A stretch of 64,000 bases of DNA from Thermoproteota archaeon. GTDB lineage: Archaea > Thermoproteota > Methanomethylicia > Methanomethylicales > Methanomethylicaceae. Below the pieces are notes generated by a model. It was not told the DNA's origin. It saw only the letters and a program-made list of their open reading frames with translations, and made no database searches. The DNA is taken from contig JAJHRG010000001.1 of NCBI GenBank assembly GCA_020832905.1, positions 64,809 to 128,808 of the forward strand. Direction: 5' to 3'. Positions 14,597 through 32,566 of this stretch are shown in pieces. The position numbers were made by a program, and so were the translations under genes. The number at the start of each line of letters is the position of its first letter. Position 1 is the first letter of the stretch.

Positions 14597-15235
14597 ATGT
14601 CTGAAATAATTGTCAAATGGTTAGGACATGCAAGTTTTCAAATAAAAACAGATAATAAAATAATCTATATTGATCCATATGAAGGAGAATATGAAGAAAA
14701 AGCAGATATTATACTAGTTACTCATTCACATTATGATCATTGTGATACTTCAAAAATTAAAAAAATAACAAAAAAAGAAACAGTAATAATTGCACCTGAA
14801 GAATGTGCAAAGAAAATTAATGCAAAATCAATAAAGCCAGGAGAAAAAATGACAATTAATGGAATAATCATTCAAGCAGTTCATGCATATAATGTTAGAC
14901 GTTTTAGATCTCCAGGAGTTCCATTTCATCCAAAGGGATTTGGTGTTGGTTACTTAATAACTATAGGAGATAAAACAATTTATCATGCAGGAGATACTGA
15001 TTTTATTCCTGAAATGAAAGAACTAAAGAATATTACACTAGCTTTACTTCCAAGTGGAGGTACATATACAATGGACAATCCAGAAGCTGCTGAAGCTACT
15101 ATAACAATTAATCCAAAAATTGTAATTCCAATGCATAGATGGGATACAAATCCAGAAGAATTTAAGAAGAAAGTAGAAGAAAAATCAAACATAAAAGTTG
15201 TAATACTTAATCCTGGTGAAGTCTATAAGCTATAA
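14597..15235 (+). CDS. Metallo-beta-lactamase-fold hydrolase
   Basis: LVTHSHYDHCD zinc-binding motif and a downstream HAGDT. About 210 aa. Confidence 0.75.
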   Translation: MSEIIVKWLGHASFQIKTDNKIIYIDPYEGEYEEKADIILVTHSHYDHCDTSKIKKITKKETVIIAPEECAKKINAKSIKPGEKMTINGIIIQAVHAYNVRRFRSPGVPFHPKGFGVGYLITIGDKTIYHAGDTDFIPEMKELKNITLALLPSGGTYTMDNPEAAEATITINPKIVIPMHRWDTNPEEFKKKVEEKSNIKVVILNPGEVYKL

Positions 15236-15864
15236 TGAGTGAAATAAAGTTTTATAGTGAAAAAACAGGAAAGTACTATAGACTTATAAGTACAAGTACT
15301 TGGCCATATCTAGAAATTTCAGGAATAAGAATGCATAGAGCAGATGATGTTGATCCAAAAACAGATGCTGAATTAAAAATAAAAGCACTTGGAAGAGTTT
15401 ATGGAAGAGTTTTAGACTGTTGTACAGGTTTAGGGTATACTGCTATTTTATTAGCAAATAAAAAAAGTGTAAATGAAGTAATAACAATAGAAAAAGATGA
15501 AAATGTAATAATGATTGCTAAACAAAATCCATATTCAAAACCTCTTTTTGAAAATAGTAAAATAAAGCTTATAATTGGAGATGCTTTTGAAGAAATAAAA
15601 AAATTTGAAGATAAATATTTTAATTTTATAGTACATGATCCACCTAGAATAAGTATTGCTCATGAGCTTTACTCTTTAGAATTTTATAAACAACTTTATA
15701 GAGTATTAAAAGACAATGGTAGAATATTACATTATGTTGGAAGACCAGGAATAAGACAAGGTAAGAATTACATAAAAGGAATAATTAATAGATTAAGAAT
15801 GGCAGGATTTAGAAGAATTAAAATGATTGATTATGCTTTAAGTCTATTAATTGAAAAAATATAA
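15235..15864 (+). CDS. Class I SAM-dependent methyltransferase (DPPR motif; N6-adenine/N2-guanine-type)
   Basis: Motif I VLDCCTGLGYTA and motif IV HDPPR. Confidence 0.6.
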   Translation: MSEIKFYSEKTGKYYRLISTSTWPYLEISGIRMHRADDVDPKTDAELKIKALGRVYGRVLDCCTGLGYTAILLANKKSVNEVITIEKDENVIMIAKQNPYSKPLFENSKIKLIIGDAFEEIKKFEDKYFNFIVHDPPRISIAHELYSLEFYKQLYRVLKDNGRILHYVGRPGIRQGKNYIKGIINRLRMAGFRRIKMIDYALSLLIEKI

Positions 15865-15890
15865 ATAGTATGGATGGATAATCCATACAT

Positions 15891-16373
15891 ATGTCAGAAA
15901 ATATAAAAAGAAGAGCAAAAATTCTTACAGAAATTGCTTTATTTTCTGCAATAAGTGGAATAGGTGCTATGATTCCTATACCAAGTCCAATTGGTTCTAT
16001 AGCTTTAGATTCTTTTCCAGGATATTTTATGGCACTTTGGAGAGGAAAAATAGAAGGAGCATTAGTATGTGCTATTGGACATTTACTTTCTGCAATAAGA
16101 GCTGGATTTCCATTAGGATTACTTCATATAGCCATAGCCTTACTTATGGCTATTGTTGGATTAACTATAGCAATTATTAAAAATAAATATGGAATTACTA
16201 TGGGTCTTATAGGTGGTATAATTTTAAATACAATAGGAGTAATAATTGTAGTACCAGTTTTAGGATGGGGAGCAATTATAGTAATTACACCAATATTATT
16301 CTTAGCTTCTTTAATAAATGCAATCATAGCAGGAATAATATATAAAATATTAGTGAAGATTTATGTTAAGTAA
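15891..16373 (+). CDS. Small polytopic membrane protein resembling an ECF-transporter substrate-capture (S) component
   Basis: 160 aa with about 5 TM helices, Gly/Ile-rich, no soluble domain. It lies head-to-tail with a PurM-like gene, next to the cobamide salvage cluster. Confidence 0.45.
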   Translation: MSENIKRRAKILTEIALFSAISGIGAMIPIPSPIGSIALDSFPGYFMALWRGKIEGALVCAIGHLLSAIRAGFPLGLLHIAIALLMAIVGLTIAIIKNKYGITMGLIGGIILNTIGVIIVVPVLGWGAIIVITPILFLASLINAIIAGIIYKILVKIYVK

Positions 16374-17100
16374 CTTCAGAGATATATTAATAAAAAAATT
16401 AGGAAATTATTTTTTAATTATAAGTTGTGATTCTTCAGGAGCAATTGGTCCAAAGAATGGAGATTTTCTAAAAGTTAATGGGGAAATTTTAGGAAAATAT
16501 ATGGTAAGAAGTGCTTTAATGGAAATTTTATCTGTAAAAGCAAAACCAATATGTATATCTTGTGGATTAGGTGTAGAGCCAGAACCAACTGGAGAAAGTA
16601 TAATTAAAGGAATAAAAGAAGAAATGATAAAAGTAGGACTTAATCCTAATGAAGATCTTGTTATAAGTACTGAAAAGAATTTTCCAACTAATCAAACAGG
16701 ACTTGGTATTACTGCTATAGGATTTGCTTCAAAAAAAGATTTACTTATTGGAAAATCAAAAAAGAATGATTTAATTATTAGTATTGGTTTACCTTCAGTT
16801 GGAAAAGAAGTTTTAGAAAATAAAGATAGTATTGTAGATATTGATGATGTATTAACTCTATTGTCTATGGATTTTATTCATGGAATTATTCCAGTTGGTT
16901 CTAAAGGAATATTGTATGAGGCAAACATATTAGCAAGAGAATCAAATCTTAAATTAAGACTTTTTAATGATATAAAATTAGATTTAAAGAAATCTGCTGG
17001 ACCAAGCACTGTTATACTTGTTACATTAAGAGAAAAATATATTGATATTATTAAAAGTAAGATTAAGAAACCAATACATAAAATAGCAACTTTAATTTAG
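16363..17100 (+). CDS. AIR-synthase-related (PurM/ThiL-like) protein; possible small-molecule kinase
   Basis: 245 aa with glycine-rich segments (CDSSGAIGPKNG, GLGVEPEPTGE) that recall the PurM-like fold. No confident family assignment. Confidence 0.35.
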   Translation: MLSNFRDILIKKLGNYFLIISCDSSGAIGPKNGDFLKVNGEILGKYMVRSALMEILSVKAKPICISCGLGVEPEPTGESIIKGIKEEMIKVGLNPNEDLVISTEKNFPTNQTGLGITAIGFASKKDLLIGKSKKNDLIISIGLPSVGKEVLENKDSIVDIDDVLTLLSMDFIHGIIPVGSKGILYEANILARESNLKLRLFNDIKLDLKKSAGPSTVILVTLREKYIDIIKSKIKKPIHKIATLI

Positions 17101-17720
17101 TTTTTTATTTTTAATTTCTCCATATATTCTCTTGCCTTTAAATATTCATCAAAAGTATTTATATTAAAAACTACTTCAAAATTATTCATAATTAAGTATA
17201 TTTCCTCAATATATTTTTCATCAATTTTTGTCTTATCAATAATATTTATACCACATGGAACAAATTCTTCATTATTAATTTTTATTATATAAGTTGGTAT
17301 TAAATTATAGCTTAATAAGTTCTTTAAAGGTGTTATTACAGTAAGAGAAGGTTTTTTCTCTTCTATGTATTTATTAATAATGAAATTAATAATTTCTGAT
17401 GTGATAAATGGAAGATCTGCTGATATTACAATAAAATATTTACCATTAGAATTCTTTATTGCAAACTTCATATCCTCATGATAATCTCTTCCACTTGTTT
17501 CTAATATGTTAATTCCCTTAATTGATTTTAGATAATTTTTTGTATTTACAGTATTAGGAGAAACAGTTACAATGATCTTATCTATAAATGAAGAATTTTT
17601 TACTGCATTTATTACTCTTTCAATTAAAGTTATTCCTCCTAATTTTAATAATGGTTTTTCAATTTTAATATTCATTCTTGAACTTTTTCCACCAGCCATT
17701 ATAATTGCAGTAAATTTCAT
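17097..17720 (-). CDS. cobY: MobA-like NTP transferase; candidate adenosylcobinamide-phosphate guanylyltransferase (archaeal CobY)
   Basis: N-terminal AIIMAGGKSSRM and EKPLLKLGG, the nucleotidyltransferase signature. First gene of the salvage operon. Confidence 0.55.
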   Translation of the reverse strand: MKFTAIIMAGGKSSRMNIKIEKPLLKLGGITLIERVINAVKNSSFIDKIIVTVSPNTVNTKNYLKSIKGINILETSGRDYHEDMKFAIKNSNGKYFIVISADLPFITSEIINFIINKYIEEKKPSLTVITPLKNLLSYNLIPTYIIKINNEEFVPCGINIIDKTKIDEKYIEEIYLIMNNFEVVFNINTFDEYLKAREYMEKLKIKN

Positions 17721-17721
17721 T

Positions 17722-18453
17722 TTAAAACCCCATTAATAATAATAGTAATAAACAAATTATTCTTGAAAATTCATTTGTACAACCAAGCATATCTCCACTA
17801 ATACAATTAAAAATCTTATGTAAAATATTAGTCCAAATTACTGAAAATAATATAATTGAAATAAAGATAATAAAGACTTTAGGATTAATAATTATAATAA
17901 CTAATGGTAATAATGAGCCAAGAACTATATTTCTATATTTTTTCTCCTTAAATTTTACTATAAAGATTTTTCCTATACCAAATTCACATGGTTTTCCTAT
18001 AAAGCTAACTAATAAAATTGATAATTTTGCAAATGTTTCAGCAATTATTAGAGAAATAAGAATATTTTTTATTAGTGAAATTAAGATAAAACTCATAGAT
18101 AATACTGCATATAGCAAAAAGAAACCACCAATACCATGATGTTTATCATGTAATATTTTTAGTTTTTCATTTTTACTTCCTCTAAACATTATTGCATCAC
18201 CTAAATCTAGTACACCATCTAAATGATGTAAACCTGTAATTATTAATAAACAAAAAAGTGTAAGTAATCCTGCTAATAACTTTGGAAAGAATATAAATAA
18301 AATAGTACCAAATAAACCACTAATAGTACCAATTATTGCTCCAACTAAAGGAAAGAAGTATGCATAATATGCAATTTCTTCTATATTACTACTATTAACT
18401 GGAATTATTGTTAAAAAGGAAATAACTGAAATAAATCCCTTTAATATTTTCAT
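17722..18453 (-). CDS. cobS: Adenosylcobinamide-GDP ribazoletransferase (cobalamin synthase)
   Basis: 243 aa polytopic membrane protein. The N-terminus FISVISFLTIIPV and the overall hydrophobicity pattern are typical of CobS. Confidence 0.65.
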   Translation of the reverse strand: MKILKGFISVISFLTIIPVNSSNIEEIAYYAYFFPLVGAIIGTISGLFGTILFIFFPKLLAGLLTLFCLLIITGLHHLDGVLDLGDAIMFRGSKNEKLKILHDKHHGIGGFFLLYAVLSMSFILISLIKNILISLIIAETFAKLSILLVSFIGKPCEFGIGKIFIVKFKEKKYRNIVLGSLLPLVIIIINPKVFIIFISIILFSVIWTNILHKIFNCISGDMLGCTNEFSRIICLLLLLLMGF

Positions 18454-19568
18454 TTTTTTCTTTCCTCAATCATATAAGAGTACATTTTACTCGATACTCC
18501 TGCTAATAATCCACCTATAACATCATCAATAAAAGGAGGTAAATTCTTTAAAATACCTGGTTTCTTTCTATCAAATCTATAAAATTCAAAAAGTCCATTA
18601 TATCCTGCAATATACATTGCAATAGAAATTCCTAAAATTTCATCAGCAACTAAATTTACAGGATCTTTTTTGTAATTCTCAGCACTCATATTAGGAATTA
18701 ATCCTCTTTCTCCATCTTCATTCAGTCTAAGACCTGCTATTACTAATGAGCTTACATTTATATCATCCATTACTTCTAATAAAATTCTTTTGAAAATTTC
18801 TTTAGCTTCTTCTTTTGAATAATTAGGATGTGGTACATAAATTTCCATAGCAGTTGAAATTAAATCTTCAAGTAGTATACCACGTTCTTTTAATCTTAAT
18901 AAGAGTTTTCTTTCAGTTTTTATATTATTGCATATTAGTGCATTATTTAAAGCATCTTCAACACATGAAGCAATTAACCATCCTAATTCAGTTGCACTAC
19001 CTGCATATTCTATAGCATTTCCTTTTCCTAGAGATGCTATAGCTAAAGCATCTGATGATGTACCAGTTGCTTGTTCATAACTTATAAAACTTCTTATATC
19101 AAAAGATGAAAGAACTTTACATTTAGCTTCTGTGATTGTTGTAATAGCATTAACCATACAACTTTCTGTCATTTCTCTATCAACAATAACAATAATATTA
19201 ATAGTACCAATATTAGGAATTTTAGTTTTTCTCATTATATTCCAATCTGTTATTGATAATGCATTTGAAATTCCTGCAGTAACAATTGCTAATACTTTTA
19301 TATTAGAAGATTCTTTTTTTGCAATTCCTGCTTTCATAAGATCTGCTCCAGTCATTAAGCATATAGCATTACTATCTACATTTTTAGATTTATAATATGC
19401 AATAGGATCATAATAGAAATCTTCTGGTATCCATAAATTTATTATCTTATTAGAAAATCTTAATCCTCCATTTATTGGAGCTGAGCTTAATACTTTAATT
19501 GGTTTTTTACTTTCAATAATAATATATTCCTTACTTATACTTACTTCTATATCATCAAAAAATATCAT
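18450..19568 (-). CDS. cbiZ: Fusion protein: adenosylcobinamide amidohydrolase (CbiZ) domain plus a C-terminal PgpA/CobZ-like (alpha-ribazole-phosphate phosphatase) domain
   Basis: The N-terminal 250 aa are CbiZ-like. The C-terminal 120 aa end in PPFIDDVIGGLLAGV, which matches the DDxxAG signature of the PgpA/CobZ family. Confidence 0.55.
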   Translation of the reverse strand: MIFFDDIEVSISKEYIIIESKKPIKVLSSAPINGGLRFSNKIINLWIPEDFYYDPIAYYKSKNVDSNAICLMTGADLMKAGIAKKESSNIKVLAIVTAGISNALSITDWNIMRKTKIPNIGTINIIVIVDREMTESCMVNAITTITEAKCKVLSSFDIRSFISYEQATGTSSDALAIASLGKGNAIEYAGSATELGWLIASCVEDALNNALICNNIKTERKLLLRLKERGILLEDLISTAMEIYVPHPNYSKEEAKEIFKRILLEVMDDINVSSLVIAGLRLNEDGERGLIPNMSAENYKKDPVNLVADEILGISIAMYIAGYNGLFEFYRFDRKKPGILKNLPPFIDDVIGGLLAGVSSKMYSYMIEERKK

Positions 19569-20455
19569 AATATCACCTCTAATAGTGAAAAAATAATAAT
19601 AGAAATGATAGCAGAAATAGTAAATATTTTTAAAGCATCTTTAATTTTCTCTAATGATGGTAATTCTTTTCCTCCTTCAATATAATATTCATTAGGTTTT
19701 CTAAGCCATATATTTAATGCTCCAGCCATTGATGCCATAGGCCATCCTGCATTTTTACTTTTAGTAAAAGAATGAAATCTTATAGTTGTAGTAATAGAAT
19801 TTTTCCAATTCTTCCTTAATATAAAAGCAGAAATAGTAAATAATAAAAAGCTAATTCTAGCAGGAATATAATTTGCTAAGGTATCTAATTTTGCAGAAAA
19901 CCAACCAAATTTAATATAACGTTCATTTTTATATCCAACCATTGAATCTAATGTATTTATAACTCTATATGCAACTGCACCTGGAAGACCAAAAATTACA
20001 TAATAAAATATAGGAGATAAAAATCCATCAACAAATCCTTCTGCAATTGTTTCAATTGTAGCTGATGCAATATGAGGTTTATCTAATGTTTTTGTATCTC
20101 TTCTTACAACTAATGATAAAAATCTTCTTGATAACTCTATATCTGTATTCATATATTTCATTATTGGAATAACATGTTTAAACATACTATTAAATGCAAA
20201 AGTCATTTTCAATATTAAAACAGATAAAATAAATTCTAACCACCATATGTTAATTAATTTTATTAAAAATGTAAAAGATGTAAATAAAATAATTGAAGAT
20301 ACTGCAAGTAAAGTACCTGCTAATCTTTCATTTTTTATTTTTCTAAAATAATTCTCCATTTTTTCTATAAATTTTCCAATCCAAACTGTAAGATGAAAAT
20401 AATTTGGAGGCTCTCCAAATATTAAATCAATTAAAAAAGAAATAATTAATATCAA
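19565..20455 (-). CDS. cbiB: Adenosylcobinamide-phosphate synthase (CbiB/CobD membrane protein)
   Basis: N-terminal LIDLIFGEPPNYFHLTVWIGKFI is the HPV-x-WIG-like CbiB signature. Polytopic membrane protein. Confidence 0.8.
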   Translation of the reverse strand: MILIISFLIDLIFGEPPNYFHLTVWIGKFIEKMENYFRKIKNERLAGTLLAVSSIILFTSFTFLIKLINIWWLEFILSVLILKMTFAFNSMFKHVIPIMKYMNTDIELSRRFLSLVVRRDTKTLDKPHIASATIETIAEGFVDGFLSPIFYYVIFGLPGAVAYRVINTLDSMVGYKNERYIKFGWFSAKLDTLANYIPARISFLLFTISAFILRKNWKNSITTTIRFHSFTKSKNAGWPMASMAGALNIWLRKPNEYYIEGGKELPSLEKIKDALKIFTISAIISIIIFSLLEVIL

Positions 20456-21819
20456 GGAGGAATCACTTCCAATACTTCTTTTCTTTTTTTTAGAATTTCT
20501 TCAGGATCTACTTTTTTAGCATCAATATCTACTAGTTTTTTAATTAATAAATTTACAACATCTTTTCTATGAATCCATATACAATCAGTACATGACCATA
20601 CTAATCTACCATTCTCTCTTTCTATGAATTTTCCTCCAGTAATATTATCTAGACATGGATAAAAATGACAAAAACAAAAACTACAATCTTCAACTTTTAA
20701 ATGACATTTCTTTTCAATACATATTGGATTATTTGGATAGAGTTTTTTCATTGAATAAATTATATTCTTTAAAGCTTTAATTAAAACAAGATTTTCTTCT
20801 TCTTTTCTTACTGCTATTCTAATGTAAGGTTCATTTAGTCCTCTTACTGAACTTAATTCTCTAATTAAAATAGCATATGATAATAATCTCCACTTCAAAT
20901 TTTTTGGTGAAAAACCACTTTTATTTATATTAATCATAAAGAAGTTTGTACTTGATGGAATTGGAACTAAACCATTAATTGATTTTATATTATTGAAAAG
21001 TTTTTCTTTTTCATTAAATATTTTCTTTTTTGAATATTTTAAAAAATCTAAGTCTTCTAAAGCAGATATCGCAGCTAATTCTTCTAAAGTACCTATTCTC
21101 CAGCTTATAGCAGTTTGATTAAATTTTTCAGCAAGACTTGAATGACATAAAGCATAGCCAACTCTCAGACCAGGAAAACCAAATGCTTTTGTAAGAGATC
21201 TTAAAACAAAAAGATTCCTAAAATCTAGTGTTAATGAGGCAAATGTTTTACTATTTTCAGAAAGCTCATAATATGCTTCATCAACTATTACAAAAATTCC
21301 TTTCTTTTCTGCAATTTCAATAATTTCAATAATTTTTTCATAATCTAAAATTTCACCAGTAGGATTATTTGGATTACAAAGAATAACACCACTAATTTCA
21401 TTATTTTTTACTATATCTAAAATTTTTTCTAAATTTATTTTGATTCCAATTGGTTCAATAAAAATAGCTTTTAATCCTAATGCTTTTACTACTACTTCAT
21501 ATTCACTAAATGTTGGTGTAGGAATTACTACTGATTTCTTAAAAAATCTTGTAAGTATAGAATGAATGAGTTCTGTTACTCCACATCCAACTATAATATT
21601 ATCACAAGGAAGATTAACATAATTAGCTATTGCTTTTCTTAATTTAGAATAATTTTTATCAGGATAATATTTTATAAGATGTAATGATGACTTAATTACT
21701 TCAATAACCTTAGGTGGAGGACCATATGGATTTATATTTGAACTAAAATCAATTATATTATTAGGAGATATTCCAATTTTATTAGAAATCTCAAAAACAT
21801 CTCCACCATGATCTATCAT
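20452..21819 (-). CDS. cobD: L-threonine-O-3-phosphate decarboxylase (class I/II aminotransferase fold) with a Cys-rich C-terminal extension of about 95 aa
   Basis: The N-terminus MIDHGGDVFE resembles the HGG start of Salmonella CobD. The PLP-fold body carries the LTKAFGFPGLRVGY lysine region. The C-terminal tail carries 9 Cys (CIEKKCH...CSFCFCHFYPC...SCTDCIW). Confidence 0.7.
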   Translation of the reverse strand: MIDHGGDVFEISNKIGISPNNIIDFSSNINPYGPPPKVIEVIKSSLHLIKYYPDKNYSKLRKAIANYVNLPCDNIIVGCGVTELIHSILTRFFKKSVVIPTPTFSEYEVVVKALGLKAIFIEPIGIKINLEKILDIVKNNEISGVILCNPNNPTGEILDYEKIIEIIEIAEKKGIFVIVDEAYYELSENSKTFASLTLDFRNLFVLRSLTKAFGFPGLRVGYALCHSSLAEKFNQTAISWRIGTLEELAAISALEDLDFLKYSKKKIFNEKEKLFNNIKSINGLVPIPSSTNFFMININKSGFSPKNLKWRLLSYAILIRELSSVRGLNEPYIRIAVRKEEENLVLIKALKNIIYSMKKLYPNNPICIEKKCHLKVEDCSFCFCHFYPCLDNITGGKFIERENGRLVWSCTDCIWIHRKDVVNLLIKKLVDIDAKKVDPEEILKKRKEVLEVIPP

Positions 21820-22475
21820 TTTCTTATCACCATAAATTCTCTTATTTTTAACATATAACGATTCCATTTTTCTAAGATCTCATAATCTTTTACAATTATT
21901 CTTCCTTTCATTATTGGAGCATCTAGTACTAAAGTATGATATTCTCCATATTCTCCACAAAAATCAATAGAAGAAAATTCCTTTATTACATCTTTATCAA
22001 TTATTTTTCCAATTAAATCTTTACTAAGTTTATTAGTATCTAAATCACATATAAGTGCTTTAATTCCATAATTTATTTCATTAATTAAAATATCATAAGA
22101 ATTACCCCATAATGGAGCATAAATATTAATATTATTTTCTTTACATAAATTTTCATACCAATTTAATTGTTCTATTGAACTTATATTCCCAACTATTATA
22201 CAATTAATATTAAGTTTTGAAAAAAGATTACTTAATTGTTTATATTCTTTTCCTTTTTCTAAATGTAATACATAAAGTGGAATTCCTATTAAATTAGCAA
22301 TAGTTTTTACAATATGAATATTAATTTCATGTATATTAGGTCTTGGAAAATCATGAGTATTAAATAAGAGATAATTAACTGATAATCCATTTTCCTTAGC
22401 TTTTATAATAGAGAAGATAGAATCCTTTCCACCAGAGAAAAATGCCAAAACTTTTAAATCTTTTTTATATTTCAT
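21816..22475 (-). CDS. PP-loop ATP pyrophosphatase of the MJ0570 family (Dph6-like), paralogue 2
   Basis: FFSGGKDS PP-loop and GEYGEYHTLVLDAP signature. Embedded in the cobamide salvage operon. Confidence 0.7.
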   Translation of the reverse strand: MKYKKDLKVLAFFSGGKDSIFSIIKAKENGLSVNYLLFNTHDFPRPNIHEINIHIVKTIANLIGIPLYVLHLEKGKEYKQLSNLFSKLNINCIIVGNISSIEQLNWYENLCKENNINIYAPLWGNSYDILINEINYGIKALICDLDTNKLSKDLIGKIIDKDVIKEFSSIDFCGEYGEYHTLVLDAPIMKGRIIVKDYEILEKWNRYMLKIREFMVIRK

Positions 22476-22481
22476 TTTTCT

Positions 22482-23423
22482 TCACTTAATATCTTTATTA
22501 CCTAAGTAAAAACCACAATATTTACAGCGTATACCATTAACTGGAGATTTACAATATGGACATGATTTTTCATTTTCTTTTGCTTTTGGAGGTAAACCAA
22601 AAATTTCTTTATACAATTTAAAAAAGTAAATTTGTTCTCTATCCCAAAATCTTATATTTTCTTTTAAAGCTTCTTTTTCAATTTCTTCTACTTCTTCCTT
22701 ATTAAGCATTTTTAATAAAATACTTGATATATTTGTACTTCCACTTCCAATTTCTATAGGTTGTTTATCTCGCCATGCTATTTCAGAAAAACCAAAATTA
22801 TCTAATATACATCTTAAAATCCATTTTCCATATACTTTTCCATTTTTCTTATTTATTTTCCATTCATAAGGTATCTTTTTTGCAAATTCAATTATTTCTT
22901 CATTAAGAAAAGGCTGAATGATTTCTATTCCTAATGCTTTTCCAATTATTCCTGATGAGAAATACCAATTTTTTATTAAAAATTCTGTATATTTACTTAA
23001 TTCTTCTCTATTCATACTTATCATGTAATCATAACCTGCAAAAAGCTCATCTCCTCCATCACCAGTAATTACTTTTCTTATTCCTTCTTCTTTAAATTCT
23101 TTTAATGCAATATATATAGAGATATCATTTCTTATTTCAATATGATCAAAAGTTTTAGTTATTTTTATAATATCTCTTATAGCATTAATGGCTTCTTCTA
23201 ATCCATATTTTCTAATCTTATGTTTAATTCCTAATTTTTTAGAAACAATTACTGAATACTTTTCATCATCTCCTTTATTAAATATAGCAGTAATACTATA
23301 AATTTTAAAATATTTTGATGTAATAATTGCTAATAAGCTACTGTCTATACCACCTGAAAGTAATATTCCCTCAGGATTATAACTTCTTATTACTTTAGAT
23401 AATAAATTAACTAATTCAAACAT
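22482..23423 (-). CDS. Asparagine-synthetase-like synthetase domain protein (PP-loop, no glutaminase domain) with a C-terminal zinc ribbon
   Basis: LLSGGIDSS PP-loop and DGGDELFAGY match the AsnB C-domain motifs. C-terminal CPYCKSPVNGIRCKYCG. Confidence 0.65.
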   Translation of the reverse strand: MFELVNLLSKVIRSYNPEGILLSGGIDSSLLAIITSKYFKIYSITAIFNKGDDEKYSVIVSKKLGIKHKIRKYGLEEAINAIRDIIKITKTFDHIEIRNDISIYIALKEFKEEGIRKVITGDGGDELFAGYDYMISMNREELSKYTEFLIKNWYFSSGIIGKALGIEIIQPFLNEEIIEFAKKIPYEWKINKKNGKVYGKWILRCILDNFGFSEIAWRDKQPIEIGSGSTNISSILLKMLNKEEVEEIEKEALKENIRFWDREQIYFFKLYKEIFGLPPKAKENEKSCPYCKSPVNGIRCKYCGFYLGNKDIK

Positions 23424-24222
23424 AATAATTTTCCTCTTTTTTATTATTTCTTTTTGGTATTATAATTGGATAATTTTCAAACCATTTTATAGCAGCATTA
23501 ATTCCATATACTTCATAAATAAGTTTTTCATTAATTATATCTCTTGGTCTTCCCATTGCTACTATTTTACCATTATTTAAAACAATAATTTTATCACAAT
23601 ATGATGATACTAAATCAATTTCATGAGCAGTTATTATTACAATTTTATTTTTTCTACTTAAAGATTTTAATATCTCCATTACTTCAATTCTATATTTTAA
23701 ATCAAGATAAGCAATTGGCTCATCAAGTAAAATAATATCTGTTCTTTGTACAAGAGATTTAGCTATAAGAACTCTTCTTTGTTCACCACTACTTAAAGTA
23801 GTAAAATCTCTATCATAAAGATGATATACTTTAAGTAACTTAAGAAATTTTTCAGCAATTTTTATATCTTCTTCTTTTTCCCACCAAAAACTTTCTGTTC
23901 TATTTCTACAACCCATAAGAACAACTTCATAAACTTTCATATTAAATCCATTTGGCCAATTAGGAAGTAAAGCTGAAACAATTTTTGAATATTCACTATT
24001 AGTATACTCATTTATAGATTTTCCAAATACTATAATTCTTCCTTTTGGAATTATACTTCGTGCAATACATTTTAAAAGAGTAGTTTTTCCTGCACCATTT
24101 GGTCCAATAATTCCTAACATTTCTCCTTTATTTACTTCAAATTTTATATTCTCTAAAATTTTTGATGAATTAAAATAAACAGTTATTCCATCTACAATAA
24201 TTTCACATTTCATATTTACCAC
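23416..24222 (-). CDS. ABC transporter ATP-binding protein (BtuD/FepC-type, corrinoid/siderophore importer)
   Basis: Walker A GPNGAGKTTLL, signature LSSGEQRR, Walker B ILLDEP. Confidence 0.85.
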   Translation of the reverse strand: MVNMKCEIIVDGITVYFNSSKILENIKFEVNKGEMLGIIGPNGAGKTTLLKCIARSIIPKGRIIVFGKSINEYTNSEYSKIVSALLPNWPNGFNMKVYEVVLMGCRNRTESFWWEKEEDIKIAEKFLKLLKVYHLYDRDFTTLSSGEQRRVLIAKSLVQRTDIILLDEPIAYLDLKYRIEVMEILKSLSRKNKIVIITAHEIDLVSSYCDKIIVLNNGKIVAMGRPRDIINEKLIYEVYGINAAIKWFENYPIIIPKRNNKKEENYYV

Positions 24223-25219
24223 CCTTCTTCATTAAAAGATAAATAAAAAATGGTACACCTATCATAGATGTAATAGTACTAATTGGTATTTCACCAAATG
24301 GATTAATGTAACTTTTAACAATATTATCAGATACTAATAATAGAAATGAACCAGTAAGACCTCCTAAAGGTAATACAAATCGATTATCTGAAGAAATCAT
24401 TAATCTAATCATATGTGGAGCTACTAAACCTACAAATCCTATTATTCCACTAAAAGCTATACAAGAAGAAACACATAAACTTGAAATTAATAACATTAAA
24501 ATCCATAATCTTTTTGCATTTATTCCAAGTTGTAAAGCATGTTCTTCACCTAATAGTAGAATATTAAGATCTCTTGCATTAATAAGAAGAAAAATAGAAC
24601 AAAAAGCAACTATTGGAAATGTAATTATAACATTAGACCATTTTGATGTAGAAAAAGAGCCATAAATCCAATAGATTATTCCATGAGCTTTTTCTTGAGC
24701 TAATGTAATTATAAGTATAAGAATAGCATTTGCTAAAATACCAACTGCAATACCTGCAAGAATAAAACCAATAGGATCTGCTTTTGCTTTTTTTGCTAAA
24801 AATATTGTTAATAAAATTGAAGAAATACCTCCAAGAAATGCAAAAAAAGGAATAAAATGTATTGATATATTTGGTAGTAAAAATGCAATAGTTGCACCAA
24901 GAGCTGCACCAGAGGACATTCCTGTAATATAAGGATCTGCTAATGGATTTCTTGTTAAAGATTGAATAACACCACCAGAAATTCCAAGAGAAAAACCTGT
25001 AATCATAGTAAATAAAGCTCTTGGAAGTCTATAGTTAAATATAATAGTACTTATTGTTTTATTTTTCTCAGGATTAATCAAATTTTCAAAAACTTCCATT
25101 GGAGATAATAGAAAAGAACCTATCATTAATGAAAATAAAAATGATATAAAAAGAAGAATAGATAAAGAAGATGAATAAATTAATAGTTTTATTTTTCTTT
25201 GTTTTGCTAATCTTAGCAT
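24203..25219 (-). CDS. ABC transporter permease, FecCD/BtuC family
   Basis: 338 aa with about 9-10 TM helices. The Gly-rich region and overall profile match BtuC/FecCD. Confidence 0.8.
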   Translation of the reverse strand: MLRLAKQRKIKLLIYSSSLSILLFISFLFSLMIGSFLLSPMEVFENLINPEKNKTISTIIFNYRLPRALFTMITGFSLGISGGVIQSLTRNPLADPYITGMSSGAALGATIAFLLPNISIHFIPFFAFLGGISSILLTIFLAKKAKADPIGFILAGIAVGILANAILILIITLAQEKAHGIIYWIYGSFSTSKWSNVIITFPIVAFCSIFLLINARDLNILLLGEEHALQLGINAKRLWILMLLISSLCVSSCIAFSGIIGFVGLVAPHMIRLMISSDNRFVLPLGGLTGSFLLLVSDNIVKSYINPFGEIPISTITSMIGVPFFIYLLMKKGGKYEM

Positions 25220-25222
25220 TAA

Positions 25223-26317
25223 CTATCGCCTAATTATATTCTCATAATTGCTTATGAAGTTAGGAACTGTAATATTGAATAATTGTGGATGAATAATATA
25301 TGCTAGTAATATAGTTGCATCAGTAATTCTTGGACCAGGTCTTTCTATTGCATTTGCTGCATTTTCTGTTAAAATATAAACTCTATTATTCTTTACAGCA
25401 TTAATTTCACTAAAACCTGGTATATTTTTTATATAATTTAATAATTCCTCAGGAGGTTTTGTAAGTGCCATTGAACTAAATATAATTACATCTGGATTTC
25501 TAGAAATAATTTCTTCAGGATTTGTAATAAACCATCCATTTTTATCATTAAATATATTAATTCCACCTGCTATTGATATTAATTCATTAGCATATGTTCC
25601 ATTTCCTGTTGTCCATAAAGGATCTAACCATACTAAGTATAATACTTTCTGTTTGGAAACTTTAGAAGTTTTAGAAGTTATTTCATTTATAGTATTTTTT
25701 ATTTGATTAATTAGTTTTTCTCCTTCTTCTAACTTTAAGGTTATTTTTGATATTTTATATATGTTATTTATTATTTCTTCTATACTTGGTGATTCTAATG
25801 CAATAACTGTAAGTCCAAATCCTTCTAAAGTTGATACAAATTTCTTTTGTAAACTTGCATCAATAAATACAATATCTGGATTTAAAGAAGCAATTTTTTC
25901 ACAATTAAGAGTAGTAACTCCACCAACTTCAGCAATTAATCCTTTTTCTTTTAGCTCTAAAACTAATTTTGGATAATTTGAATATTTATCTACACCTACA
26001 ATTTTATCAGAAAGATTAAGAGCAAATAACATTTCTGTTATTGAAGGAGTACATGATACTATACGCATAGGTTCTGAATTAATAGTAACAGTTCTTCCAA
26101 GAGCATCTTTTATTATTATTGGATAATAAAAGCTTTTGAATCTCTCTAATTCTTTTTTTGTAGAAGAAATTTCATCTATTAAGTTATTTAATTTATTGCC
26201 AAGAGAAGAAAGACTAAGATCTATATTGGAGATATTATTATTTATCGCAAAAATCATAGCAGTATTAATGACTCCTAATATTAGAGCAATAATAATTAAT
26301 GTAGATATGTATTTCAT
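25223..26317 (-). CDS. Periplasmic-type substrate-binding protein, class III (BtuF/FepB-like), membrane-anchored
   Basis: N-terminal signal/anchor. Bilobed SBP signatures (IVSCTPSITEMLFAL, VGVDKYS, PDIVF). Operon with the BtuC- and BtuD-like genes. Confidence 0.75.
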   Translation of the reverse strand: MKYISTLIIIALILGVINTAMIFAINNNISNIDLSLSSLGNKLNNLIDEISSTKKELERFKSFYYPIIIKDALGRTVTINSEPMRIVSCTPSITEMLFALNLSDKIVGVDKYSNYPKLVLELKEKGLIAEVGGVTTLNCEKIASLNPDIVFIDASLQKKFVSTLEGFGLTVIALESPSIEEIINNIYKISKITLKLEEGEKLINQIKNTINEITSKTSKVSKQKVLYLVWLDPLWTTGNGTYANELISIAGGINIFNDKNGWFITNPEEIISRNPDVIIFSSMALTKPPEELLNYIKNIPGFSEINAVKNNRVYILTENAANAIERPGPRITDATILLAYIIHPQLFNITVPNFISNYENIIRR

Positions 26318-26630
26318 TATAAATCACCATATGGATGGTATATCCATCCAAAAATTCTTATTAAAAAATCCTTTATATATTTTTAACTATTTTTAATATA
26401 ATTGGTGAAATATATGAAATTAAGATTAATTGTAGATGATAAAGAAATTTTTCTAAATGATTTTGTTAATAATATCTTAGGAAATATAATAATAAGTGCA
26501 GTAATGACTCTAAAAGGAGTAAATAAGAATTGGAAAAGTATTAAAATTGAAATTGAAAATGCTTAAAAATTCTAATTTAAAAATCATCCAAAAGGAATAA
26601 ATCTTACTTCTTTTTCTCTTCTTCATAGAA

Positions 26631-26705
26631 GGGCCCGTAGCTCAGCCAGGTCAGAGCGGCAGGCTCATAACCTGTTGGTCGAGGGTTCGAATCCCTCCGG
26701 GCCCA
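26631..26705 (+). tRNA. tRNA with CAU anticodon (elongator Met or Ile2/agmatidine substrate); no encoded CCA
   Basis: GGGCCCG-UA-GCUC-AGCCAGGUCA-GAGC-G-GCAGG-CUCAUAA-CCUGU-UGGUC-GAGGG-UUCGAAU-CCCUC-CGGGCCC-A. The G1:C72 pair means it is not the initiator. Confidence 0.8.
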
Positions 26706-26904
26706 TACTTTTAAATTAATATTAAAAGTATTAAATAAAAATTTAATTAGTAAGATTAAATTTTGTAGAATTTTATATGAAAAAAACAAATATTCTTTCC
26801 CTAGTTTTAAGTAAGAAAATAAAACATAATCATAAGTGATATTAAGAAATTTTAAACTCTCTAGTAATCAAAAGCATTAAAAATAAAAGAAAACTAATGG
26901 AAAT

Positions 26905-26935
26905 TTTAAGGCGCAACAAATATATTTAGGAAAGA
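26905..26935 (+). promoter_or_regulatory. Putative rRNA operon promoter (BRE/TATA-like AAATATATTTA) about 25 bp upstream of the start of the GC-rich leader
   Basis: An AT-rich TATA-like element at 26918-26928 lies just before the abrupt switch to a GC-rich structured leader at about 26945. Confidence 0.35.
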
Positions 26936-27111
26936 AAATAAAAAACTTGGCACGAACTGGCAATATCAACTTACGCCATAGCTCCGGCGGCGCTGGTCAG
27001 ACCTTACGGACGAAAGTCCGAGGGATGAATGACCGCCCTCCAGCTATGGCAATAATATGAGGACTTGAACAAACCAATGTGTAACACCATTGGTATGTTC
27101 AAGTCCTATAT

Positions 27112-27155
27112 GGGCCCAATACCCAATTGTGAAATATAGTTGGGGGTATAACAAC
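27112..27155 (+). other. 5' strand of the 16S rRNA processing stem (pairs with 28866-28909)
   Basis: 44-nt inverted repeat flanking the 16S. It is complementary except for a central mismatched block, consistent with a bulge-helix-bulge processing site. Confidence 0.7.
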
Positions 27156-27173
27156 CTACAGCCTTGCGGCTGT

Positions 27174-28858
<1,685 letters not shown>

Positions 28859-28865
28859 ACGAATG

Positions 28866-28909
28866 GTTGTTATACCCCCAACTATACACATAAATTGGGT
28901 ATTGGGCCC
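28866..28909 (+). other. 3' strand of the 16S processing stem
   Basis: Reverse complement of 27112-27155 apart from a central bulge. Confidence 0.7.
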
Positions 28910-28993
28910 ATAATGCTAATTTTTATGCAACTGAGGAGTTCTTACTCCTCAGTGAAGGGCGTAGTAAGGTTTATAACCTTACGATGATCGCCA

Positions 28994-29040
28994 TGCATAG
29001 GTCTTAGTCCCTTAGCATCTACCAGATTTTGGAATACTGG
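28994..29040 (+). other. 5' strand of the 23S rRNA processing stem (pairs with 32121-32168)
   Basis: CAUGCAUAGGUCUUAGUCCCUUAGCAUCUACCAGAUUUUGGAAUACUGG is complementary to the sequence following the 23S 3' end. Confidence 0.7.
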
Positions 29041-29193
29041 GCCTGACACACAGACGCCGGTTGGTGGATGGCTCGGCTCAGGCGCCGACGAAGGGCGCGG
29101 CAAGCGGCGATATGCTCCGGGGAGGCGCATGCAGCCTTCGATCCGGAGATCCCCGAATGGGACTTCCTGCCATGGGTTAATAGCCCATGGCGC

Positions 29194-29233
29194 TCGGGAA
29201 AAATAACCGGTATTACCGGTTATTTTTCCCGAG
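29194..29233 (+). repeat. 40-nt perfect palindrome (AT-rich hairpin) inside 23S domain I
   Basis: CUCGGGAAAAAUAACCGGUAUUACCGGUUAUUUUUCCCGAG. Its centre is GGUAUUACC. Confidence 0.8.
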
Positions 29234-29288
29234 TGGGAACCCCCCGAACGGAAACATCCAAGTAGGGGGAGGAAAAGAAACCAAAAGG

Positions 29289-29331
<43 letters not shown>

Positions 29332-29560
29332 GAATCCCTTTGCGATAAGCAAAGGGAGATGTAGGGTTCGGACACCCCCGTTAAAACCCTTCCTAGGGAA
29401 GCCGAAGTGGCCTGGAAAGGCCCGCCGTAGAGGGTGATAGCCCCGTAGGCGTAACCTAGGGGGGTTTGGGGGTGTTCCAGAGTACCACGCCTTGGTTGTG
29501 GCGTGGGAAGGTGGGAGTTACTAACTCCCAAGGCTAAATACGTCCTGAGTCCGATAGCGA

Positions 29561-29594
<34 letters not shown>

Positions 29595-29810
29595 GAGAGG
29601 GGAGTGAAAAGAGCCTGAAACCAACCGGCTACGTAGTGACGTGGCACGAAAGGGATGATTTCTACCGAAGGAGCCCTCCGAGAGGAGGTAGTACGAGGTA
29701 GAAGGACCGGTGTCACGTCTTCCGTTTTGGAGCACGGCCCAGGGAGTTCACCGGAGTGGCGAGCCTAAGGGGATCAACCCCGTAGGCGTAGGGAAACCGA
29801 CAGCCCGCAT

Positions 29811-29843
29811 CCACATTAAGTGGGTATTACCCACTTAATGTGG
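29811..29843 (+). repeat. 33-nt perfect palindrome (AT-rich hairpin) inside the 23S
   Basis: CCACAUUAAGUGGGUAUUACCCACUUAAUGUGG. Its centre, GGUAUUACC, is the same as that of the hairpin at 29194. Confidence 0.8.
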
Positions 29844-30503
29844 AGAGGGGCGGGGTCCGACGAGGGCCCGAATAGTCACTCCGGTGATAACCCGAAACCG
29901 AGCGATCTAGGCCTGGGCAGGGTGAAGCCAGGCGAAAGCCTGGTGGAGGCCCGCAGGGGTTCTGACGTGCAATTCGTTCCTCTGACCCAGGCCTAGGGGC
30001 AAAAGACCAATCAAGCTCGGTGATAGCTGGTTCCCCCCGAAGTGGGTCGCAGCCCAGCCCGCCCGGAGGTTGCTGGCGGGGTAGAGCTACCAATTGAGGG
30101 TGCGTGGGCCGAAAGGCCCAGCCCCTCTTTTGAACTCCGAACCTGCCAGCTCCGTAGATGGGCGGAGACGGGTTCCACGGGAAAAGCCTGTGGGCCGAGA
30201 GGGGAACAACCCAGACCCGGGTTAAGGCCCCTAAATGCTGGCTTAGTGTTAAGCCAAAGGGCGTCCCGGATCTGAGACAGCTGGGAGGTAGGCTTAGAAG
30301 CAGCCATCCTTTAAAGAGTGCGTAACAGCTCACCAGCCGAGATCCGGGGCCCCGAAGATTTTCGGGGCTAAGCCAGCTGCCGAGACCCGGGGGTAGACCC
30401 CGTCTGGGGTCTGCCGGTAGGGGGGCGCTCCGGTTGGGCAGAAGCTGGGCCGAAAGGTCCAGTGGACCAACCGGAGGTGCGGATCCTGGGGGTAGTAACA
30501 GCA

Positions 30504-30536
<33 letters not shown>

Positions 30537-31882
30537 CAGGGTTCCTCGGCAACGGTCGTCGGCCGAGGGTCAGCCGGTCCCTAAGGCGGCACATAGCTTG
30601 TCGCCGCCGATGGGGAAACTGGTTAATATTCCAGTGCCTTGGAGATCAGATGCGCTAACTCCTTTGCCTCGGGATAGGCCGAGCAGAGCCGCCGCTCTGC
30701 CTAACCTATCTAAGCCCGGGGAGTACCGTAATGGTGAGAACCGGGCGAAGATAGGGATGGGCCGACCGTAAGGTCGGTTCGGCCGATTCCTGGGGCCCAT
30801 GAAAAGGGAGTTAGTAAGAGATCTCCAAGACCGTACCGAGAACCGACACAGGTGCCCTGGATGAGCAGTCTAAGGCGTGTCGGGAGCACCCCAGGTCAGG
30901 GAACTCGGCAAATTGGCCCCGTACCTTCGGTAGAAGGGGTGCCTGGGTCTCTGGGCGAAAGCCTGGAGACCTAGGTCGCAGTGACAAGGGGGAGGCGACT
31001 GTTTAATAAAAACATAGGTCCCCGCAAGCCCGTAAGGGTGTGTACGGGGGCTGAATCCTGGCCACTGGCGGTCCGTGAAACCCGGGTTCAACCGGGCGAA
31101 GCGCCGCCGAAGGCCGGGAGTAACTCTGACTCTCTTAAGGTAGCCAAATGCCTTGTCGGGTAAGTTCCGACGTGCATGAATGGATCAACGACCTCCCCAC
31201 TGTCCCGACCTGGGGCCCGGTGAAGCCACCTCTTGGTGAAAAGTCCAAGTACTTCCAACGGGGGGATAAGACCCCGTGGAGCTTTACTGCAGCCTGCCGC
31301 TGGGATACGGCCATGATTGCAGAGCGTAGGTGGGAGTTGATGAAGTAGCTCCTCCGGGGGCTATGGAGACGCCAATGTAACACCACCCTTTCATGGCTGT
31401 ATCCCTTACCAGGCGGAAGCCTGGGACAACGGTTGGTGGGCAGTTCGGCTGGGGCGGCACGCCCTTGAAAAGATATCAAGGGCGCCCAAAGGTCGGCTCA
31501 GGCGGGTCAGAACTCCGCCGTAGAGGGCAAGGCCAAAAGCCGGCCTGATTGGACCCTTAACAGTAAGGGGTCCAAAGGCGAAAGCCTGGCCTAGCGACCG
31601 CTCGTGTCCCTTTTAGTAGGGGCCGGGCATGACAGAAAAGCTACCCCGGGGATAACAGAGCCGTCGCGGGCGAGAGTTCACATCGACCCCGCGGTTTGCT
31701 ACCCAGATGTCGGCTCTTCCCATCCTGGGGGTGCAGCAGCCCCCAAGGGTGGGGCTGCCCGCCCATTAAAGGGGAACGTGAGTTGGGTTTAGACCGTCGT
31801 GAGACAGGTCGGACTCTCCCTGTTGGAAGTGCTGGCTGCCTGAGGGGAAGGTGCGCCCAGTACGAGAGGAACGGCGCGCCGC

Positions 31883-31914
<32 letters not shown>

Positions 31915-32120
31915 TCGCCGGGCAGCCACGCCGCACGGGTTAACCGCTGAAAGCATCTAAGCGGGAAACCCTCCCCGAGACCAGGCAGCCATTCCACTCC
32001 CATTTGGGAGTGGACGAGGGCTCCCGTAGAACACGGGGTTGATGGGGCGGGGGTGTAAGCACCAAGGCCGAAAGGCCGAGGTGTTCAGCCCGCCGCTCCC
32101 AATCGCCCGAGGTGCAGGTC

Positions 32121-32168
32121 CAGTATTCCAAAATCTGGATGAAACTAAGGGATTAAGACCTATGCATG
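32121..32168 (+). other. 3' strand of the 23S processing stem
   Basis: Reverse complement of 28994-29040. Confidence 0.7.
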
Positions 32169-32233: not shown

Positions 32234-32566
32234 GCCAGGAGTAAGCAGCGAGTTGGTGGGTAGCCGACGGGCCCCATATAGGGGCCTGAGGAAACTCCAC
32301 CCTCCACGTAGGACCGCAGCGCCGTGAGGCGCAGGGGGAGACCCCTGCTCTTGGCACAGAAACGAGACGTGCGGAAGTGGATGTCTATGATGTGAAGAGT
32401 TATCTCTTCACTGAGTATACTTCCGCTTTCGTTGAAACGGCCAAGCTGCGGGGAGAAAGGGCAAATAGGAACCGATGAGGCCTACGCGAGGTTCGGGTAG
32501 CCCGAATAGTCGAATGCTACCTAAAACAGAAGGTGGGTTACGGCCAACACGCTGCTTACTCCTGGC
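32234..32566 (+). ncRNA. rnpB: RNase P RNA (archaeal type A-like)
   Basis: GC-rich 333-nt structured RNA closed by a 17-bp terminal helix (GCCAGGAGUAAGCAGCG / CGCUGCUUACUCCUGGC). P4 strands: GAGGAAACUCCACCCUCC (with the conserved bulged U) and ACAGAAGGUGGGUUACGG, which covaries against the E. coli ACAGAACCCGGCUUA. There is also GGGCAAAUAGGAACC, a P11/12-like CAAAUAGG. Confidence 0.8.

Follow-up and report, generated by a model that had tools for sequence, protein, structure and literature searches.

Gene content of the locus

The 64,000-nucleotide stretch of contig JAJHRG010000001.1 considered here, called the window throughout, comes from an uncultured archaeon of the Methanomethylicia/"Verstraetearchaeota". 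Between positions 17097 and 26317 it carries ten minus-strand open reading frames (ORFs) for cobamide enzymes, an ABC importer, and two PP-loop ATPases, beside which lies a convergent pair of plus-strand genes, and a short palindrome precedes the first gene of each group. The ten ORFs fill the interval, adjacent genes either overlapping or leaving 1–6 nt between them, which is the arrangement expected for one operon, transcribed in the order BtuF-BtuC-BtuD-AsnBC-DUF71-CobD-CbiB-CbiS-CobS-CobY. Families were assigned by comparing Pfam and NCBIfam profile scores with the cut-offs of the models, and this profile check, together with the ORF coordinates, bears out the gene identities that a first-pass annotation had proposed for the interval. 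The genes, in order of transcription, are as follows.

25223-26317, minus strand: BtuF-like substrate-binding protein, membrane-anchored at its N terminus, with whose gene the operon begins; PF01497 (Peripla_BP_2), 131.9 bits
24203-25219, minus strand: BtuC-like permease of the FecCD family; PF01032, 310 bits
23416-24222, minus strand: BtuD-like ABC ATPase; PF00005
22482-23423, minus strand: PP-loop ATPase made of the asparagine-synthetase C-domain only (AsnB-C), with a C-terminal zinc ribbon (CxxC..CxxC); PF00733
21816-22475, minus strand: DUF71-B12-type PP-loop ATPase, paralogue a, motif GEYGEYH, loop FFSGGKDS; PF01902, 146.9 bits
20452-21867, minus strand: CobD, L-threonine-phosphate decarboxylase with a Cys-rich metal-binding tail (MmCobD type); TIGR01140 and PF04071
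19565-20455, minus strand: CbiB, adenosylcobinamide-phosphate synthase; NF002281, 340 (cut-off 273), and TIGR00380, 253 (cut-off 166)
18450-19568, minus strand: CbiS, a CbiZ amidohydrolase (residues 21-206) joined to a CobZ alpha-ribazole-phosphate phosphatase (residues 226-364)
17722-18453, minus strand: CobS, cobamide-5'-phosphate synthase; TIGR00317, 146.8 (cut-off 110)
17097-17720, minus strand: CobY-like adenosylcobinamide-phosphate guanylyltransferase; PF12804 / NTP_transf_3

Regarding the bifunctional CbiS, its N-terminal part matches PF01955 (CbiZ) with 167.7 bits over residues 21-206, its C-terminal part matches TIGR03161 (CobZ) with 164.1 against a cut-off of 152.5 over residues 226-364, as well as the PgpA-like PF04608 (42.1 bits), and the full-length protein reaches 244.3 bits with NF038002 "bifunc_CbiS", whose cut-off is 250. 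CobD scores 280.6 bits with TIGR01140 (cut-off 290.55), and its tail, residues 388-448, scores 59.8 bits with PF04071. The CobY-like protein is matched by NF045495 over positions 3-187 of 195 (E 2.7e-33), with 115 bits against a cut-off of 250, and by TIGR00454 with 127 bits against 174.7.

The first-pass annotation had singled out the compactness of the block and its fused phosphatase as unusual, a judgment that is too strong, as the fusion is a known protein with a profile model of its own and the gene order recurs in the Methanomethylicia. The same ten-gene order occurs in four other metagenome-assembled genomes of the Methanomethylicia/Thermoproteota (L004, L010, L011, and L012), all of which keep CobY after CobS and whose AsnB-C proteins share 47–84% identity. 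A JGI metagenome contig carries the locus too, as do two SRA assemblies.

The importer unites a FecCD-type permease, a cluster-A binding protein, and an ABC ATPase in one operon, and its substrate, from gene context alone, would be a corrinoid. A heme or siderophore importer, with the cobamide genes as incidental neighbors, is what several profile scores would suggest: for the ATPase, a heme ABC model ranks first in NCBIfam (199.5 bits, ahead of a corrinoid ABC model with 181.2 bits; neither reaches its cut-off), the binding protein does slightly better with the IsdE heme-binding model than with that of BtuF (93.8 bits, below cut-off), and no cut-off for BtuF, BtuC, or BtuD is reached. Against this, BtuC models head the NCBIfam matches of the permease (236.6 and 218.8 bits, short of their cut-offs), several lineages have the importer genes nearest the promoter in the same overlapping operon, and BtuF homologues rank second among the genes downstream of the B12-associated palindrome described in the next section. 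We regard transport of heme or a siderophore as quite improbable and take a corrinoid importer as the working assignment.

On the other side of the operon, converging with cobY, lies a pair of genes that looks like the CblT/CblS system for alpha-ribazole salvage, accompanied by three neighbors, one of which probably belongs to the system while the membership of the other two is uncertain.

16363-17100, plus strand: CblS-like PurM-fold protein of 245 aa, predicted alpha-ribazole kinase, convergent with cobY; weak match to PF00586 (AIRS)
15891-16373, plus strand: CblT-like S-component of the energy-coupling factor (ECF) type, predicted importer of alpha-ribazole or another lower ligand; PF12822, 39.4 bits
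15235-15864, plus strand: S-adenosylmethionine (SAM) methyltransferase, membership uncertain; Pfam match, syntenic in L004
14585-15235, plus strand: metallo-beta-lactamase-fold hydrolase, membership uncertain; Pfam match, syntenic in L004
13874-14506, minus strand: DUF71-B12-type PP-loop protein, paralogue b, motif GENGEYH; PF01902, 115.6 bits, and PAB0415 family, 196 bits

Membership of the pair in the CblT/CblS system is suggested by fold and context. The 245-aa protein has no NCBIfam match, a sequence search of the PDB was negative, and neither Pfam nor NCBIfam holds a model named CblS; its AlphaFold (AF2) model, with a pLDDT of 95, is matched by Foldseek to HypE, PurM, ThiL, and SelD (E ~1e-14), which are members of the ATP-dependent PurM superfamily, ThiL being a kinase. 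The family is always preceded by an ECF S-component gene, and the pair is kept in L004, L008, and L009. In L008, from Halanaerobaculum tunisiense, a full cbi/cob operon contains a homologue with 50% identity and its S-component, placed between CobU and CbiP; the stretch that was fetched has no CobT. CblT and CblS have been described as the alpha-ribazole transporter and kinase of Firmicutes that lack CobT, and CblS has been reported mostly there. For the hydrolase and the methyltransferase the hints of membership are weak, namely a metallo-beta-lactamase gene beside AsnB-C in L064 and a fusion of DUF71-B12 with a methyltransferase (P0307).

A palindrome at the promoters of cobamide genes

The first-pass annotation had suggested looking for a cobalamin riboswitch upstream of the btuF-like gene. 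The Rfam models of the RF00174 clan give no match anywhere in the window at their gathering score, and none within positions 26100-27200 at E<=10; what stands there instead is a palindrome in the DNA, of which the window holds two copies.

26333-26349, no strand, GGATGGTATATCCATCC (26332-26350, TGGATGGTATATCCATCCA): perfect palindrome GGATGG-N5-CCATCC, candidate operator, 15 nt upstream of the btuF-like ATG
15872-15888 (15871-15889), no strand, GGATGGATAATCCATAC: second copy with one mismatch, 2 nt upstream of the cblT-like ATG

The first copy lies just downstream of a TATA-like box and the second 4 nt downstream of an AT-rich stretch, AAAAAATATAAATAG, so that the CblT/CblS-like pair and the btuF operon have the palindrome in common. 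With up to two mismatches allowed, the 64 kb contain no match besides this pair, the expected number being 0.07, and looser scans of the window found no additional copy at the promoter between the second DUF71 gene and the hydrolase gene or upstream of the NrdD-like gene. A 50-aa ORF (26414-26566, plus strand, MKLRLIVDDKEIFLNDF...), divergent from the btuF-like operon across the palindrome, has no Pfam match; it is conserved at the protein level in L004 (Methanomethyliaceae), and gene calls for it exist in L001 and L004.

The palindrome recurs in other archaea. It stands upstream of BtuF in L004, L005, L010, L011, L012, and L058, including relatives of quite different G+C content, and upstream of BtuF, CobZ, or CbiB in fetched genome loci of Bathyarchaeia and Hadarchaeota; altogether the fetched genome loci contain 17 matches, compared with 2.1 in shuffled sequences. 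In addition, metagenome contigs were scanned with the exact 17-mer GGATGGATAATCCATCC, closely related to the palindrome of the window, and outward-facing genes within 150 nt of it were clustered. Of the 120 sites, 81 face a gene family with a link to B12, be it direct or by way of recurrence with cobamide clusters. The families facing the 17-mer, those found once being left out, are listed below.

ECF-S-like membrane protein of ~210 aa: 37 loci
BtuF: 24 loci
Winged helix-turn-helix (wHTH) + DUF4443 protein: 8 loci
NrdD: 4 loci
DUF4430-PKD surface protein: 4 loci
HTH-ATP-cone-NrdD: 3 loci
ECF ATPase: 3 loci
B12-binding corrinoid protein: 2 loci

The most common downstream gene (37/120), 1–10 nt from the palindrome, encodes the ~210-aa membrane protein (PF07155, ECF S-component-like), which also occurs in the cobamide clusters of L054 (7546-8313), L056 (8602-9246), and L085 (3834-4442) and may be an archaeal S-component specific for corrinoids; no homologue of this family was found in the window. 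As to the anaerobic ribonucleotide reductases, the window encodes an NrdD-like protein (58740-61022, plus strand) with an N-terminal HTH (DUF7347/HTH_5) and an ATP-cone, ahead of which there is no palindrome, and homologues of the same architecture have the B12 palindrome upstream in three metagenome loci.

The geometry is consistent: the TATA box stops a few nucleotides short of the palindrome, and the start codon comes within 1–20 nt after it. Such an order is typical of an archaeal repressor site, and repression is what it would suggest. As for the protein that might bind there, the wHTH-DUF4443 family, homologous to PH0730 (PDB 2P8T), is likely the best candidate in other archaea, because its members are encoded within cobamide clusters (L005, 6863-7519; L054, 10042-10710; L058, 4376-5029) or within ~2 kb of an AsnB-C gene (L037, 3850-4413; L080, 7781-8404). 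Its own promoter bears the GGATGGATAATCCATCC palindrome in eight loci. The palindrome may already have been described, since the abstract of Rodionov et al. 2003 reportedly names a "CBL-box" as the site of a B12 regulator postulated for archaea.

Two families of PP-loop proteins

The operon includes two adjacent PP-loop genes. The 313-aa AsnB-C protein has AsnB (1ct9) as its closest solved structure (E 6e-39), aligned over residues 208-506 only; it has no GATase match in Pfam, the class-II glutaminase domain being absent, and its scores with the equivalog models are 141 against 499 (NF006949) and 104.5 against 267 (TIGR01536). An alignment of 24 homologues (A1) has three invariant motifs, namely SGGxD[ST], which is LLSGGIDSS here, TGDGGDELFAGY, and CxxC..CxxCG.

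To describe its surroundings, loci of one genome per species, 80 in all, were annotated by phmmer with the proteins of the window. A DUF71 gene lies within 10 kb of AsnB-C in 29 of the 80 species loci and directly adjoins it in 22; cobamide-specific genes are near it in 28, BtuF or BtuC in 23, and either kind in 31, so that DUF71 and/or cobamide/Btu genes accompany AsnB-C in 36/80. The linked loci come from Methanomethylicia, Bathyarchaeia, Hadarchaeota, and Asgard archaea, as well as from Dehalococcoidia, Deltaproteobacteria, Nitrospirota, Clostridia, and Omnitrophota, and in a neighbor-joining tree they are scattered over most clades. The gene is solitary in ammonia-oxidising Thaumarchaeota, Methanophagales, and Nezhaarchaeales, and the palindrome precedes solitary AsnB-C genes in Nezhaarchaeales and Hadesarchaea. 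A literature search returned nothing on an asparagine-synthase-like gene in corrinoid salvage, and the text of PMC3541065 does not mention an AsnB-C-only protein as a cluster member.

The second family, PF01902, was divided by de Crecy-Lagard et al. in 2012 into Dph6 and a "DUF71-B12" subfamily, which is recognized by its gene neighborhood, btuCDF or cbiB, and by a motif ENGE[FY]H that replaces EGGE/DxE; its function was left open, a CbiZ-like role being offered as a guess (PMC3541065). Both copies in the window carry the B12-type histidine signature, with His opposite the catalytic Glu of Dph6 (EGGEFE) in PF0828/3RJZ, and DUF71 genes cluster with btuFCD and/or cbiB in the window and in other loci. 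The copy in the operon scores 121.7 with the Dph6 equivalog, whose cut-off is 197.3. Paralogue b has a shortened PP-loop, FSGKDS, its gene is syntenic in L004, and genes of its type flank BtuF across the palindrome in many metagenome loci; it probably belongs to the B12 system.

An exhaustive phmmer search with the operon DUF71 protein returned B12-type fusions to a CobD-type aminotransferase (P0350) and to a CbiP-type cobyric acid synthase (P0400), both within bacterial cob operons, and further ones to a SAM methyltransferase (P0307) and to a second DUF71 domain (P0295). A concatenated AsnB-C and DUF71 query, used to search for fusions, gave single-domain proteins only. As a side observation, B12-type or unclassified DUF71 domains (P0307, P0399, P0423, and P0336) are found in fusions with SAM methyltransferase and radical-SAM domains, one of them in a protein of 2455 aa; in the window, a SAM methyltransferase (15235-15864) is situated near the second DUF71 copy.

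The names "asparagine synthase" and "diphthamide synthase" given in databases would make the two PP-loop genes housekeeping passengers with no tie to cobamides. This is very improbable in our judgment: AsnB-C is without a glutaminase domain, His takes the place of the catalytic Glu of Dph6, the scores with the Dph6 and AsnB equivalogs are far under the cut-offs, linkage to cobamide genes is kept across archaeal and bacterial phyla, and the common operator precedes these genes elsewhere too.

With regard to their chemistry, the PP-loop families in question activate a carboxylate by adenylation and then form an amide. This family chemistry and the neighbors CbiB, CobD, CbiP, and CbiA make corrinoid-carboxylate amidation the most economical guess; in this tentative proposal, AsnB-C and DUF71-B12 would use ATP to adenylate a corrinoid carboxylate and would then convert it to the amide, thereby repairing or completing the side-chain amidation of salvaged corrinoids. 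The hypothesis of 2012, in which the PP-loop proteins would replace or complement CbiZ by cleaving or otherwise processing complete cobamides such as pseudo-B12, draws on the reported anticorrelation of DUF71-B12 and CbiZ in bacteria, with the provision that archaea may have both, and was met in the same paper by a reviewer's comment that PP-loop ATPases are not known to carry out hydrolysis (PMC3541065). DUF71 and CbiZ stand together in the bacterial loci L031 and L038, and fusion or adjacency to the amidotransferases CbiP and CbiA, L085 included, points to chemistry of the ligase type, so that we consider a CbiZ-like role improbable; it suits PP-loop chemistry less well than amidation does.

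In two loci of the Bathyarchaeia type, a CbiA-type amidotransferase is strung together with AsnB-C and/or BtuFCD (L085, 4463-6837; L117, 1440-2822), and no other ring-synthesis genes are near the one in L085. These neighbors hint at under-amidated corrinoids as substrates of salvage.

The proposed salvage regulon and its relation to known systems

The locus is, with good probability, a corrinoid (cobamide) salvage regulon, which is the best explanation of the whole. CbiZ belongs to the ordinary archaeal route of cobinamide salvage, in which adenosylcobinamide is hydrolyzed to adenosylcobyric acid and rebuilt via CbiB. In the proposed pathway, the BtuFCD-type importer would take in cobinamide or other corrinoids, which an adenosyltransferase encoded outside the window would adenosylate, and the CbiZ domain of CbiS would convert adenosylcobinamide into adenosylcobyric acid. 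CobD would make aminopropanol phosphate from threonine or threonine phosphate, CbiB would attach this product, and CobY would add GMP. In place of CobT, the CblT-like S-component would bring in alpha-ribazole for the CblS-like kinase to phosphorylate, after which CobS would couple the two halves and the CobZ domain of CbiS would take off the phosphate. AsnB-C and one or two DUF71-B12 paralogues are envisaged as conserved extras that would restore amides to salvaged corrinoids in a deamidated or incompletely amidated state, and both transcription units would be under control at the DNA level, by a protein binding to GGATGG-N5-CCATCC downstream of the TATA box and ahead of the start site.

The first-pass annotation had read the block as a complete scavenge-and-rebuild module, and its logic, from import through CbiZ, CbiB/CobD, CobY, and CobS to CobZ, is right as far as it goes. 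It assigned no role to the two PP-loop ATPases and did not say where the lower-ligand nucleotide would come from. Completeness is another matter, as the adenosyltransferase that would supply the substrate of CbiZ is not encoded in the locus. Salvage by the standard CbiZ route is supported, whereas remodelling of complete cobamides would go further than the evidence, archaeal CbiZ being predicted not to cleave them (PMC3541065).

That no genes for de novo corrin synthesis are visible, as had also been claimed, was confirmed by a scan of the 64-kb window with cobamide proteins from other loci, which found no homologue of CobA, CobT, CobU, CbiP/CbiA, CbiG, CbiJ, or the methylases of CbiF type. 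If the CblT/CblS-like pair is assigned correctly and supplies the lower-ligand nucleotide, the absence of CobT would be explained. Apart from the rRNA genes, every other ORF with 110 aa or more either is of the housekeeping kind (RNA polymerase, topoisomerase VI, PolD, HypF, SHMT, and the NrdD-like reductase, for example) or has no family match.

It could nevertheless be that the cluster is the late, nucleotide-loop part of a full de novo pathway with its corrin-ring genes elsewhere, which would make salvage a side function and the locus unremarkable. DUF71-B12 does occur in de novo operons as well (L091), and 64 kb is only part of the genome, in which the largest contig alone measures at least 650 kb. 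Set against this are the lack of any ring-synthesis gene inside those 64 kb and the presence of an importer, CbiZ, and a CblT/CblS-like pair, all specific to salvage and co-transcribed or co-regulated with the rest. We hold a de novo role to be unlikely, though well short of negligible, and retain the salvage regulon as the preferred reading.

Several observations weigh against this reading in one or another of its parts. Equivalog cut-offs are missed, narrowly or clearly, by CobY, CbiS, CobD, and the BtuFCD proteins, and sequence does not fix the specificity of the transporter, since heme and siderophore models score near those of BtuC, BtuF, and BtuD. Neither an adenosyltransferase gene nor a DUF4443 homologue is present in the 64-kb window. 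AsnB-C is solitary in 44 of the 80 loci surveyed, notably in all ammonia-oxidising Thaumarchaeota. Finally, the sole AsnB-C + DUF71 fusion (P0309) and the sole fusion of DUF71 with a glutaminase domain (GATase1, P0389) that were examined carry the Dph6-type motif EGGE[FL]E, and because of this no fusion directly backs the use of ammonia by the B12-type enzymes. These two proteins were set aside as evidence on that point, and by the same argument one may not assume that the GATII-AsnB-DUF71 fusions mentioned in PMC3541065 are B12-type.

The most far-reaching form of the proposal joins two ideas: AsnB-C and DUF71-B12 would form an unrecognised ammonia-using amidoligase step, of the ATP-pyrophosphatase kind, that parallels CbiP/CbiA, and the salvage set would belong to a pan-archaeal regulon repressed via GGATGG-N5-CCATCC by a protein of the PH0730/DUF4443 type. 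Taken together, these are possible, and we put them forward as a conjecture more doubtful than not.

Regarding the wider setting, the G+C content of the window is ~26% and that of the rRNA operon (27175-32122) is 60%. The 16S rRNA match (27175-28858, plus strand) is 1684 nt long against an archaeal model of 1478 positions, which suggests an insertion or intron of ~200 nt; the 16S-23S spacer (180 nt) is without a tRNA, RNase P RNA (32248-32552) follows directly after the 23S gene, and a 5S gene was not found in the window. Two tRNA matches, at 3678-3813 (minus strand, 136 nt) and 36439-36530 (plus strand, 92 nt), are unusually long, presumably owing to introns. The latter reads as a tRNA with a CAU anticodon and lies just downstream of the gene for TiaS, the agmatidine synthetase (34742-36043).

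Cobamide exchange shapes anaerobic and geothermal communities, and the methyl-reducing Methanomethylicia depend on corrinoid proteins. In this context, the locus packs into a small and tractable unit the question of DUF71-B12 function, which dates from 2012, a second PP-loop partner, and a DNA-level archaeal B12 regulon. Conservation of the AsnB-C partner extends from Asgard and TACK archaea to the Dehalococcoidia, a group generally held to salvage corrinoids. The regulon, in archaea, which are not known to have cobalamin riboswitches, comes with a named candidate family of regulators (PDB 2P8T), and its operator offers a simple route to new B12-related genes in uncultured archaea. The core of the pathway is textbook, and the value of the locus lies in the PP-loop pair or trio, the archaeal CblT/CblS-like pair, and the widely conserved promoter palindrome.

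The locus can be compared with several known systems. Archaeal salvage dependent on CbiZ was reportedly worked out in Halobacterium and Methanosarcina by Woodson and Escalante-Semerena in 2003-2005. The present locus shares with those organisms CbiZ, CbiB, CobY, CobS, CobD, and CobZ, a linked BtuFCD-type importer, and the lack of a CobU-type kinase; it differs in that the genes form one overlapping operon with extra PP-loop genes, a CblT/CblS-like pair in place of CobT, and a palindrome at the promoter. CbiS of Methanopyrus kandleri is said to have been characterised as a bifunctional CbiZ and alpha-ribazole-phosphate phosphatase (J Bacteriol 2006), and the protein described here, known from its sequence, has the same two-domain architecture, reaching the CobZ equivalog and falling just under the cut-off of the CbiS model. 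MmCobD (MM2060) of Methanosarcina mazei is reported by Tavares et al. (2018, 2019) to be both an L-Thr kinase and an L-Thr-P decarboxylase and to contain metallocentres; the CobD of the operon is likened to it by its domain make-up, a pyridoxal-phosphate-dependent decarboxylase of the aminotransferase fold followed by the C-terminal Cys-rich PF04071.

Salvage by CblT/CblS, reported by Gray and Escalante-Semerena 2010 and Mattes and Escalante-Semerena 2017, is that of Listeria innocua and Geobacillus kaustophilus, where an ECF S-component is likewise followed by a small ATP-utilising protein, in or beside cobamide genes and with CobT lacking; CblS has been reported mostly in Firmicutes, whereas the pair described here is archaeal and is likened to them by fold and context. 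The regulon resembles those of bacterial cobalamin riboswitches, and the archaeal "CBL-box", in gathering uptake systems, salvage enzymes, and B12-independent ribonucleotide reductase, and differs from the bacterial ones in that a DNA palindrome at the promoter, rather than an RNA element, is the common feature. Finally, the DUF71 proteins agree with the DUF71-B12 subfamily in the PF01902 fold, in having His for the Dph6 Glu in E-x-G-E-[FY]-H, and in clustering with btuFCD/cbiB, and depart from it in that there are two paralogues, that the copy in the operon reads EYGEYH rather than ENGEYH, and that an AsnB-C-only protein stands as their partner (PMC3541065).

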